From positions 1 to 27,864 of the forward strand of contig JBGPZN010000001.1 in assembly GCA_041493815.1 (NCBI GenBank): a stretch of 27,864 bases of DNA, given 5' to 3'. The notes below the pieces were generated by a model that worked only from the letters and a program-made list of their open reading frames with translations, had not been told where the DNA came from and did no database searches. This document shows positions 1,806 through 24,952 of the stretch, piece by piece (the stretch's first letter is position 1; each line of letters begins with the position of its first letter). Position numbers and translations under genes: made by a program. The stretch comes from Candidatus Methylomirabilia bacterium. GTDB lineage: Bacteria > Methylomirabilota > Methylomirabilia > Rokubacteriales > CSP1-6.

Positions 1806-2162
1806 CTACGACGCGCGCCCGAACATCGCTTGTAAGACTCTGTACGCCTTGCGGAGATCCTCGGGTCGGCGGCGGCCGGAGACGAGCGCGAAGATCTTCT
1901 CGGCCTCCTCGGTGGGCACGCTGGCCGGCTTGTCAGCGCGGACATCGGTGAGATCGCGCAGCGGGATGTCGAGGGCGACCGAGACGTGGTAGAGGCTGTC
2001 GATCGAGATCGACTTCTCGCCGCGCTCCACCTCGCCGATGAACTTGCCGCTCAGTCCAGCCCGTTCGCCCAGGCGCTCTTGGCTCAACCCATGCTGCTTG
2101 CGGAGGGCGCGCAGGCGCTGCCCCAGAAACTTCCGAACGTGCTTGACGGCTCTCTCTCCCAC
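1806..2162 (-). CDS. XRE/Cro-family helix-turn-helix transcriptional regulator
   Basis: LGQRLRALRKQHGLSQERLGERAGLSGKFIGEVERGEKSISIDSL HTH_3 pattern; GAGGGG upstream of GTG. Confidence 0.9.
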   Translation of the reverse strand: MGERAVKHVRKFLGQRLRALRKQHGLSQERLGERAGLSGKFIGEVERGEKSISIDSLYHVSVALDIPLRDLTDVRADKPASVPTEEAEKIFALVSGRRRPEDLRKAYRVLQAMFGRAS

Positions 2163-2298: not shown

Positions 2299-2607
2299 TC
2301 ACGGCAGGTCGACCTCGACGACGCCGCCGGTGAGGCGGGCGGCGTACACGGGCACCGCGAGATCCGGGTCCACGTTGCAGCGGCCCGTGGCCAGGTCGAA
2401 GTCGAAGCCGTGCCACGGACACACGACGGCGCCGCCCTCGAGCCATCCCTCGCTGAGCGGGCCGTCCTCGTGAGGACAGGTGGGCCCGGTGGCATAGAAG
2501 CGGCCGTCGCCGGCGTTGAACACCGCCAGCGGCAGGCCGTCGCGCTCGACGAAGGCGCCGTGGCCGACCGGGATCTCGTCCGCGCGCCCCACCGGCACGA
2601 ACGCCAT
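2299..2607 (-). CDS. Rieske [2Fe-2S] ferredoxin (102 aa)
   Basis: CPHEDGPL...CPWHG (CxH/CxxH) ligands; ATG overlaps upstream stop (TGATG). C-terminal part of track ORF 2299..3303. Confidence 0.92.
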   Translation of the reverse strand: MAFVPVGRADEIPVGHGAFVERDGLPLAVFNAGDGRFYATGPTCPHEDGPLSEGWLEGGAVVCPWHGFDFDLATGRCNVDPDLAVPVYAARLTGGVVEVDLP

Positions 2608-3242
2608 CAGCGGGCCGCGAGCGCGTCGTCGATGACGCCGCGGAAGTTCTCGACCGGATGGGCGCCGACCAGCGGCCGGCCGTTGATGAGGAACGTCGGC
2701 GTGGAGCGCACGCCGAGCGCGCGCGCCTGCGCCACGTCGGCCTCCACCGCCGAGGCGAAGCGCCGCTCGTCCACGCACCGCGTGAACGCCTCGCGGTCGA
2801 GCCCGACCTCGACCGCGTAGCGGATCAGGTCGTCGCGCTCGAAGGCGGGCTGGGCGGCGAACAGCCGGTCGTGGTACGGCCAGTAGCGGCCGAGCGCGCC
2901 GGCGCAGCGGGCCGCCTCGTGGGCGGGGCGGGCCAGCGCGTGCGAGGGCAGGGGCAGATCCTTGAAGACGAGACGCACGCGGCCCTCGTATTCCTTCAGG
3001 ATCTGCTCCAGCGACCGCTGGACGCGCGCGCAGTACGGTCACTGATAGTCGGAGAACTCCACGATGGTGACCGGGGCCCTGGCCGGACCCTTGATCATGC
3101 TCGGGTCGGCGCCCGACTCCGGCGGCGCCTGTGCGTCGGCGACGCCGACCAGGACGGCCAGCAGCGCCACGAGCCACGAGGTCCGAATGGTGTAGACTCG
3201 CGACCGGCGGACGGACGAGAGGCGAACGCGGTTCACCACCAC
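2607..3242 (-). CDS. DsbA/DsbG-like thioredoxin-fold protein, selenoprotein (UPYC; TGA at 3039-3041)
   Basis: Track ORFs 3039..3242 and 2607..2978 are in one frame: ...VTIVEFSDYQ-TGA-PYCARVQ...FKDLPL...GVRSTPTFLING. TGA sits at the first Cys of CxxC; signal peptide-like N-terminus ending ADA; SECIS-like hairpin follows. Start is one of three GTGs (3242/3239/3236). Confidence 0.88.
3003..3033 (-). promoter_or_regulatory. Putative bacterial SECIS element of DsbA-like gene
   Basis: mRNA after UGA: lower stem CUGC/GCAG, upper stem UCCAGC/GCUGGA, apical loop GGUC starting 22 nt after UGA. Confidence 0.7.
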
Positions 3243-3246
3243 GCGG

Positions 3247-3255
3247 AGAATACCA
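3247..3255 (-). promoter_or_regulatory. Putative extended -10 (TGGTATTCT) for a leaderless dsbA-like transcript, overlapping the doxX RBS/start
   Basis: TATTCT at 3247-3252 (minus) lies 7 nt from GTG 3239; TG at 3254-3255. Confidence 0.4.
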
Positions 3256-3710
3256 TGGACAACGCGCTGGATCTCCTGCTCGGGACGTATCCGTCATGGT
3301 CACGCCTGGTGGTCAGGCTGGCGCTCGGCATCGTGTTCTTCGCGCACGGCGCCCAGAAGGTCTTCGGCTGGTTCGGCGGCCACGGCCTCAAGGCGACCAT
3401 GCAGGTCTTCCACCAGTACCTGAAGATCCCGCCGGCGGCGACGGTGCTGGCCGCGTTCATCGAGTGCTTCGGCGGCCTGGCGCTGATCGTCGGCTTCCTG
3501 GCCCGGCCGTCCGCGCTGGGGCTCATCGTCGTCATGCTGGTGGCCATCGCGAAGGTGCACTGGAAGAACGGCTTCTTCCTGGCGACCCAGCCCGGGCAGT
3601 CCAACGGCTGGGAGTACAACTTCGCGCTCATCGCCATGGCGCTGGCCGTCTTGATCGGCGGCGCCGGCGCGCTGTCCGTCGACTTCCTGATCCGGCCGCA
3701 CGGCGAGTAG
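3255..3710 (+). CDS. DoxX family membrane protein
   Basis: RLALGIVFFAHGAQKVFGWFGG...ECFGG...HWKNGFF...GWEYNFALIAMALAVLIGGAGALSVD; GGAG SD before ATG 3255. Confidence 0.92.
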   Translation: MDNALDLLLGTYPSWSRLVVRLALGIVFFAHGAQKVFGWFGGHGLKATMQVFHQYLKIPPAATVLAAFIECFGGLALIVGFLARPSALGLIVVMLVAIAKVHWKNGFFLATQPGQSNGWEYNFALIAMALAVLIGGAGALSVDFLIRPHGE

Positions 3711-24517: not shown

Positions 24518-24952
24518 ATGCTCACGCCAGGAGCCAAGGCGCCCGACTTCGTGGGCCGCGATCACACCGGCAAGACCGTGACGTTGTCGGACTTCGCCGG
24601 CCGGCCCGTTGTCCTGTGGTTCTTCCCGAAGGCCGATACCCCAGGCTGAACGGCGGAGGGTTGCGGGTTCCGCGACCTCAAGGCCGACTACGACACGAAG
24701 GGGGCCGTCATCCTCGGCGTCTCCTTCGATACCCCCGCCGAGAACAAGGCGTTCGCCGACAAGTACAGCTTCAACTTCCCGCTGATCTGCGACACCGATC
24801 GGAAGATCGGCACGGCCTACGGCGCCAACGCCGATCCCGCCAAGGGCGCGCAGCGCGTCGGCGTGGTGATCGCCAGGGACGGCACGATCAAGGAGTGGCA
24901 CGCGAAGGTGGATGCCCGGACCTGGCCGGCGCAGGTGGTGCAAACGCTGTAG
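24518..24952 (+). CDS. bcp: BCP/PrxQ peroxiredoxin, selenoprotein (TGA at 24647-24649 = peroxidatic Sec44)
   Basis: [11 protein letters not shown]...[25 protein letters not shown]...GVSFD...[14 protein letters not shown]..., continuous frame to TAG 24950-24952; GGAGG SD; SECIS-like hairpin. Confidence 0.92.
24656..24679 (+). promoter_or_regulatory. Putative bacterial SECIS element of the peroxiredoxin gene
   Basis: GAGG(G)UUGCG[GGUUC]CGCGACCUC: about 9-10 bp stem with one bulged G and one G-U pair; loop starts 16-17 nt after UGA. Confidence 0.72.

Follow-up and report, generated by a model that had tools for sequence, protein, structure and literature searches.

A predicted DsbA-like selenoprotein gene of the Rokubacteriales, read across an in-frame UGA codon

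DsbA-like selenoproteins with a UxxC motif were first described in 2005 by Zhang, Fomenko and Gladyshev in the Sargasso Sea metagenome (PMC1088965). They have also been listed for Anaeromyxobacter, Desulfovibrio and Desulfotomaculum (PMC1794560), and a catalogue of 2026 holds them as DsbA-like "form 1", with a UxxC motif and the Pfam family PF01323 (PMC13188914). A metagenome-assembled genome (MAG) of the Methylomirabilota with 63 predicted selenoprotein genes is cited in the same paper. Here we analysed 27,864 nucleotides of the genome of a Candidatus Methylomirabilia bacterium of the Rokubacteriales (contig JBGPZN010000001.1 of assembly GCA_041493815.1, positions 1 to 27,864; the whole stretch is called the window below). 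On its minus strand, an earlier note made from the sequence had pointed out a DsbA-like oxidoreductase with selenocysteine (Sec, U) in the redox motif, split in two by the open reading frame (ORF) caller. Our analysis supports that interpretation: every element that the note had listed was found in its place, and the tests by which the note could have been refuted did not refute it. The frame is very probably a real gene for a DsbA-fold selenoprotein with a Sec-Pro-Tyr-Cys active site, which is predicted to be secreted or membrane-anchored. The coordinates of the features are collected in Table 1.

Reading frame, fold and described relatives

When its internal TGA is translated as Sec, the frame gives a protein of 211 residues (...TIVEFSDYQ-U-PYC...) with a complete C-terminal domain; translation table 11 breaks it into two ORFs of 67 and 123 amino acids. 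The TGA is codon 68 and falls exactly on the attacking Cys of the CxxC motif. Two Pfam profiles match across this codon above their cut-offs, Thioredoxin_4 (PF13462) with 1.8e-34 over residues 47-206 and DSBA (PF01323) with 7.3e-24, and the coding pattern is intact on either side of the TGA, as the earlier note had held. The STPTF cis-Pro loop is also retained. In the alignment of homologues, 34 columns are invariant and lie on both sides of the UGA, including C71, C113, C156 and the loop residue P182. P69 and T181 are nearly invariant, and T181, T183 and F184 are conserved in at least 90% of the homologues.

A model of the 211-residue protein was built by AlphaFold with 28 homologues, and it has a mean predicted local distance difference test score of 87.9, with values above 95 across residues 50-210. 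It contains the strands 58-64, 89-95, 183-186 and 189-192 and five inserted helices within residues 104-175, with U68 at the start of the helix 69-84. Almost all of the top 50 Foldseek matches are DsbA-, BdbD-, ScsC- or TsdA-type oxidoreductases. The best matches in the PDB are DsbA of C. diphtheriae and TsdA, together with BdbD of B. subtilis; Wolbachia DsbA is also among the Foldseek matches, and the sequence search of the PDB agrees, with C. diphtheriae DsbA at 5e-20. The predicted structure is that of the DsbA/Thioredoxin_4 superfamily, in which a helical domain is inserted into a thioredoxin fold; the CxxC-type motif is at the N-terminus of the first helix opposite the cis-Pro loop, with Sec as its first residue. 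The invariant C113 and C156 could pair as a structural disulfide.

The protein shares with DsbA-like form 1 the DsbA-type thioredoxin fold, Sec as the first residue of UxxC, homologues that have Cys in its place, and a selenocysteine insertion sequence (SECIS) directly downstream of the UGA with a G in a small apical loop. Besides these features, it has an N-terminal signal or anchor segment and a conserved DoxX/Rieske/helix-turn-helix (HTH) neighbourhood in Rokubacteria. Unlike the Sargasso Sea family (COG2761, FrnE-like), it scores best with Thioredoxin_4, and FrnE itself is just a weak match in the PDB (1.4e-8, compared with the 5e-20 of C. diphtheriae DsbA). Judged by the COG assignment and by the profile and PDB scores, it probably forms a separate subfamily within the same superfamily. 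The best NCBIfam match is NF041057 (Rcas_1661 family thioredoxin-like (seleno)lipoprotein; 3e-34, residues 45-206), which likewise comprises exported thioredoxin-like proteins in Sec and Cys forms. However, the window protein reaches 118.7 bits against a cut-off of 190, and is therefore a relative rather than a member of this family; it also lacks a lipobox Cys, the signal segment ending in ...GVADA-Q.

Relatives with solved structures are C. diphtheriae DsbA (4pwp, 4pwo), TsdA (7unn), B. subtilis BdbD (3eu3) and ScsC. The window protein is 30-32% identical to 4pwp and 7unn, and the comparison with BdbD gave TM values of 0.74/0.84. The position of the CPxC-type motif, the Thr-cisPro loop and an extracytoplasmic location (predicted for the window protein) are common to all of them. 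In contrast, the solved relatives are all of the Cys type and none is SECIS-encoded, and their partners of the VKOR or BdbC/DsbB type were mostly not found in the lineage of the window.

Table 1. Features of the window and of the predicted selenoprotein gene
Feature	Position	Strand	Remarks
DsbA-like selenoprotein coding frame (predicted)	3242..2607	minus	211 codons and TGA stop at 2609..2607
Predicted signal peptide or membrane anchor	3132..3242	minus	read from sequence
Sec codon UGA	3041..3039	minus	residue 68, N-terminal attacking position of redox motif
Active-site tetrad U68-P69-Y70-C71	3030..3041	minus	UxxC counterpart of CPYC/CPFC in Cys homologues
SECIS hairpin GUCCAGC-GGUC-GCUGGAG	3006..3023	minus	
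Hairpin UCCAGC/GGUC/GCUGGA	3022..3007	minus	6-bp stem
Core 5-bp stem	3021..3017 and 3012..3008	minus	
Apical loop GGUC	3016..3013	minus	
cis-Pro loop S180-T181-P182-T183-F184	2691..2705	minus	part of thioredoxin fold
Rieske [2Fe-2S] protein	2299..2607	minus	102 aa, downstream; Pfam Rieske 9.4e-19
XRE-type regulator	1806-2162		highly conserved, downstream
DoxX-family membrane protein	3255..3710	plus	divergent; Pfam DoxX 1.2e-20, DoxD 3.7e-6
PrxQ/BCP peroxiredoxin	24518-24952	plus	AhpC-TSA 1.4e-35; TGA at 24647-24649

Conservation of the UGA codon and the downstream hairpin

Among the 251 genomes of the phylum that were scanned, the family (f1) has 129 orthologue rows, of which 99 contain exactly one in-frame TGA, 29 contain none and one is partial. 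We fetched 101 of these loci for codon comparison. TGA was present at the identical codon in 78 of them (74 distinct sequences) and TGC or TGT in the other 23. The codon is unchanged while the protein identity among the TGA-form orthologues falls to about 52%. When 40 relatives were searched in six frames, the one-TGA orthologue was detected in 12 of the 13 congeners and also in several further genera. Together with the Cys orthologues at the identical codon, this is the alternation between Cys and TGA by which the earlier note had suggested that the reading be checked. Orthologues from other families of the phylum were all Cys forms in the scan of 251 genomes. U68 aligns with the first Cys of CPYC or CPFC in the 23 orthologues and in about 70 more distant homologues. 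One protein from a JGI metagenome (P0002/L048) is 81% identical to the window product and is a Cys form (TGC), and its gene neighbourhood is the same as that of the window (DoxX, DsbA, Rieske and HTH). A pattern scan beyond the phylum gave all-Cys matches; one of its patterns was VEFSDYQC, with Cys at the Sec position, so that it cannot show that Sec forms are absent there.

The TGA was also present in independent data. Contigs of a freshwater-sediment metagenome of 2018, which have 10 differences from the window, bridge the TGA site, and no variant at 3039-3041 was observed in any run among the independent metagenome contigs, where TGC or TGT would have counted against the note's reading. A UGA is opposite Cys at the redox site, and the UGA and the flanking coding sequence are kept across species, as expected of a selenoprotein gene.

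A maximum-likelihood protein tree was calculated with the redox column masked and was left unrooted, so that it carries no direction for the changes between Sec and Cys. The tree requires at least seven such changes, at least four of them forced by well-supported branches, and Cys forms are nested within Sec clades. One further locus (L168, G145:C15:250819-251638) has lost 1 nt immediately behind the TGA, at the 5' border of the SECIS stem, and is thereby frameshifted; this reflects either a gene in decay or an indel error in a long-read assembly.

In the published model of the bacterial SECIS (bSECIS), the loop comprises 3-9 nt with a G in its first two positions and is separated from the UGA by 16-37 nt, the stem has 4-16 bp, and the minimum free energy (MFE) is -7.5 kcal/mol or lower (PMC13188914). 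The hairpin that the earlier note had described, with its GGUC loop 22 nt downstream, was located at exactly this distance, folds at -12.4 kcal/mol and satisfies all of these constraints. The stem CCAGC starts 17 nt past the UGA and is preceded by a U in most sequences. In the window copy, a bulged G allows two further pairs below the stem (3025..3003); this bulge is not conserved among the orthologues. The SECIS of E. coli fdhF is likewise a short GC-rich hairpin in the coding region soon after the UGA, with a GGUC loop that exposes G and U for SelB. The spacing in the window is about 4 nt longer, and the bulge in the window is a G below the 6-bp stem.

Since the DNA is 70% GC, stability alone is weak evidence. 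The 26-nt hairpin was modestly better than shuffles (z = -2.09, 5 of 200 shuffles as good), and the 71-nt stretch after the UGA was no better than shuffles (z = +0.32). The MFE fold of these 71 nt, in which the UGA is paired in a long stem, was rejected on this z value and because the stem is not conserved in relatives. The case for the hairpin therefore rests on comparison between genomes. Pairs were counted over a 7-pair helix in 71 distinct Sec-form sequences, which are mutually related. Of the helix cells, 91% are paired, compared with 10-47% when the partner strand is slid. Double changes occur in 16 cells at three pairs, namely U-A to C-G in nine sequences, G-C to C-G in six and C-G to U-A in one. 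None of 500 shuffles reached the pairing and double-change values. The compensatory changes support the hairpin, short of proof, the sequences being related.

The hairpin also follows the codon. All five core pairs are present in 74 of the 78 Sec forms (mean local MFE -12.8) and in only 4 of the 23 Cys forms (mean -6.9). The window and the 81%-identical Cys orthologue differ at 10 positions in the 72 nt surrounding the site, and 6 of these are within the hairpin. The codons of the stem are frozen, with CGG for R76 in 49 of 49 sequences, CAG for Q75 in 74 of 74, GTC for V74 at a share of 0.98 and CTG for L78 at 0.95, compared with commonest-codon shares of 0.39-0.82 at other conserved four- or six-fold degenerate positions of the DsbA gene. 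The loops found in relatives are GGUC (45), AGGU (21), GGAC, GGGC and AGGC.

Selenocysteine machinery and decoding of the UGA

The MAG is 82% complete by marker genes and consists of 652 contigs of 3.7 Mb in total, with 19 tRNA genes assembled; congener assemblies are 2.9-7.2 Mb, most of them at least 4.6 Mb. It encodes SelB (266 bits, above the cut-off), in which the beta-barrel, wing_2 and wing_3 domains of this factor are present. The end of a contig (C231) truncates the gene at the N-terminus, and the protein is 88-91% identical to SelB of relatives. All four components, SelA, SelB, SelD and tRNA-Sec, were found in three congeners and one relative of another genus in the family, with scores of 70 bits for tRNA-Sec (anticodon TCA), about 580 bits for selA and 334-417 bits for selD. 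In those relatives tRNA-Sec, selA and selB are clustered, and the missing genes of the MAG would therefore lie just off the end of C231. The neighbour of selD in a congener is at the very end of another MAG contig (C83). The earlier note had proposed a search of the genome for the Sec machinery: SelB was found in the MAG and the full set in congeners, and the rest of the set was not recovered from the MAG.

Several observations weigh against a selenoprotein. First, selA, selD and tRNA-Sec were not recovered from the MAG, even when the sequences of congeners were used as queries. Given the incompleteness of the assembly, its 652 contigs and its few tRNAs, this absence is uninformative, yet it is a gap. 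Second, contigs from RNA libraries flank the UGA on both sides, and none of them bridges it by 31 nt. Third, the core five pairs of the hairpin are almost invariant, so that the covariation comes from two outer pairs and from one sequence for a core pair. Over the 71 Sec forms RNAalifold missed the hairpin as a consensus and returned a structure of -0.57 kcal/mol with no covariation; the named hairpin was assessed by pair counting in place of this consensus. Fourth, three Sec forms of one genus (L189, L193 and L196; g34) are without the usual hairpin. Finally, a Shine-Dalgarno sequence was not evident upstream of the start of the selenoprotein gene, and the start codon is just 13-19 nt from the divergent DoxX start.

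The three Sec forms of genus g34 have a different hairpin, GCGC-AGGAU-GCGC, shifted by about 2 nt, and their closest Cys relatives (L151 and L153) branch within the same clade. This pattern may be a SECIS turnover event.

By analogy with the established bacterial pathway, we infer that the UGA is decoded and does not act as a stop. The C-terminal winged-helix domains of SelB would bind the downstream hairpin, and the SelB-GTP held there would hand Sec-tRNA(Sec) to the ribosome at the UGA. After export, the selenolate of U68 would attack disulfides or thiols of the substrate, C71 would resolve the intermediate through a selenenylsulfide, and T181-cisP182 would line the substrate groove. Selenium insertion, catalysis and export are inferred here, as are the partners and whether the enzyme runs as an oxidase, an isomerase or a reductase.

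In the search for the missing genes, the following matches were set aside. A match of the MAG to the Rfam tRNA-Sec model (31.8 bits, 66 nt) is below the gathering score and ordinary tRNA-like. A 94-nt "tRNA-???" called by ARAGORN (C21:573-666), with an odd anticodon loop, had no Rfam match at E values up to 0.1. A 99-bit match to the selD family on C238 is AIR-synthase-related and is without the N-terminal Cys/Sec motif of SelD. Matches from blastn and tblastx of the sel loci of relatives against the MAG were obscured by a dispersed repeat about 70 nt long, and protein queries found no selA or selD. This repeat is located beside the tRNA-Sec locus of a congener (L034:1838-1906) and is matched by more than 40 MAG contigs at 76-92% identity, in some cases in tandem (for example C406:4204-4273, C649:11699-11773 and C402:5623-5854). 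It looks like a dispersed element of the repetitive extragenic palindromic (REP) or miniature inverted-repeat transposable element (MITE) kind. In three of the five genomes searched, selD has one in-frame TGA (G010:C37:15102-16055, G018:C35:113035-113976 and G020:C2:27610-28551), and in the other two (G005 and G006) it has none; SelD itself alternates between Sec and Cys within the family.

Alternative explanations, gene neighbourhood and other features of the window

The gene neighbourhood bears on the physiological role. The ATG of the downstream Rieske gene (2607..2605) overlaps the stop codon of the DsbA gene by one base (TGATG, 2609..2605), which suggests translational coupling of the two genes. 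Of the 37 orthologous loci compared with their flanks, most have a Rieske gene directly downstream, and so do JGI/ENA contigs. The ATG of the divergent DoxX gene and the first GTG of the selenoprotein gene are 13 nt apart, and this adjacency is kept at many orthologous loci. The whole DoxX/DsbA/Rieske/XRE arrangement recurs at most orthologous loci. DsbB (PF02600) was not found in any of five genomes, the MAG and four relatives (G000, G005, G006, G010 and G018). VKOR (PF07884) was present in only one of the five (G005), and each of them has several DsbA-like paralogues.

These observations raise the possibility, which we consider less likely than not, that the selenoprotein, though real, does not act as a DsbA-type oxidase of secreted proteins and works instead as a reductase, isomerase or scavenger together with the Rieske protein and DoxX. 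Metal or peroxide defence of the ScsC or TsdA kind and a DoxX-linked thiol-quinone module are possible roles of this sort. The negative search for DsbB and the single VKOR in the five genomes are consistent with it, as are the presence of TsdA- and ScsC-type proteins beside DsbA and BdbD among the top structural relatives and the syntenic Rieske and DoxX genes. In addition, Sec gives thioredoxin-fold proteins a lower redox potential and faster exchange. A pair of DoxX and DsbA genes is also found in the aborycin cluster (PMC6409603). On the other hand, the Rieske protein has no evident signal peptide and may occupy a different compartment, and both DoxX and Rieske are missing beside the more distant Sec orthologues L028 and L029. 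This alternative touches the physiological role alone and is compatible with a DsbA-fold selenoprotein. A more specific proposal is that the Sec-DsbA of Rokubacteria is the soluble arm of a redox module free of DsbB and VKOR, in which DoxX, itself related to the quinone-linked DoxD, would re-oxidise or re-reduce it and the Rieske protein and the XRE regulator would belong to the same unit. We consider this unlikely; if true, the DoxX-linked module would be a new selenium-based route of envelope thiol-disulfide exchange.

Another explanation, which we regard as highly improbable, is that the UGA specifies Trp, Gly or Cys, a standard amino acid, through a genome-wide change of the genetic code or through SECIS-independent near-cognate read-through. 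When selenium is lacking, some bacteria insert Cys or Trp at Sec codons at a low level, and the complete Sec machinery was not shown within the MAG. However, TGA is the ordinary stop of the same gene (2609..2607), and long genes such as selB are without an internal TGA, so a genome-wide code change can be set aside. Moreover, homologues invariably have Cys opposite this codon, and Sec and Cys are the classic pair. The MAG encodes SelB with its SECIS-binding domains, the tRNA-Sec of congeners carries the anticodon TCA, and the restriction of the SECIS-type hairpin to TGA forms, in the proportions given above, also speaks against it.

The least probable explanation is a pseudogene or sequencing error, in which a nonsense change from TGC to TGA in an ordinary CxxC DsbA left the two ORFs as remnants; although the table 11 translation, the frameshift just after the TGA in the relative G145 (locus L168) and the sel genes missing from the MAG would fit it, 99 orthologue rows, drawn from distinct species-level genomes, have the TGA at this codon and show no further stops or frameshifts, both halves are under clear purifying selection with their 34 invariant columns, the hairpin specific to the TGA form is conserved, and it is excluded for practical purposes because of this conservation and the independent contigs without a variant.

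As a selenoprotein gene, the DsbA frame would not be the only one in the window. In a PrxQ/BCP peroxiredoxin gene on the plus strand, a TGA falls at the peroxidatic Cys (PKADTPG-U-TAEGC) and is kept in 10 of 13 congeners. It is followed by the hairpin GGUUGCGG-GUU-CCGCGACC.

In public records the DsbA gene is held as C-terminal fragments of 131 and 124 amino acids, including those from two genomes deposited at NCBI (the 131-residue form in NCBI/ENA), and a spurious 43-residue ORF on the opposite strand is also called at some loci. The earlier note had expected automated pipelines to call fragments of an under-annotated but known family, which agrees with these records and with the literature (PMC1088965, PMC13188914). 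The NCBI pipeline leaves the protein unannotated because no model covers it. The window DsbA, PrxQ and about 100 Rokubacterial orthologues are thus stored as truncated fragments, and proteome-based studies of the abundant Rokubacteria of soil and sediment consequently overlook an envelope redox enzyme and underestimate the use of selenium. The gene represents a new lineage-wide subfamily of an already known kind of selenoprotein. General knowledge of selenoproteins is unchanged by it, the UxxC DsbA-like kind and the richness of Methylomirabilota in selenoproteins having been reported before. The exchanges between Sec and Cys, with matching gain or decay of the SECIS, offer material on the origin of SECIS elements inside coding sequence, and the family is useful for building a lineage-specific SECIS or NCBIfam model.

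The start of the DsbA gene is one of three consecutive GTG codons (3242..3234), of which the GTG at 3236..3234 is kept in all congeners. An n-region rich in Arg, the hydrophobic stretch WLVALLAVLVGV and an A-D-A sequence with Q behind it make up the N-terminal segment, which signal peptidase I may cleave after residue 37. The AxA-Q pattern recurs among the orthologues, and the AlphaFold model has a low-confidence helix at residues 17-33. The hydrophobic N-terminus with AxA-Q, taken alone, suggests that the protein is exported. A Tat signal was rejected, the twin arginine of the n-region not being conserved in orthologues. A start downstream of the conserved RVYT was also rejected, as some congeners would be left without a usable signal peptide.

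Within the first codons of the DsbA gene, two blocks of DNA hardly vary among 12 congeners and have no third-position wobble. The first (3224-3234, in the minus reading) is the palindrome GAAC-CGC-GTTC. The second (3189-3200, in the minus reading) is CGAGTCTACACC, and its opposite strand GGTGTAGACTCG contains the -10-like TAGACT. The two blocks look like an operator and a promoter common to the divergent DsbA and DoxX genes, and the XRE regulator is perhaps the ligand of these operator-like blocks.

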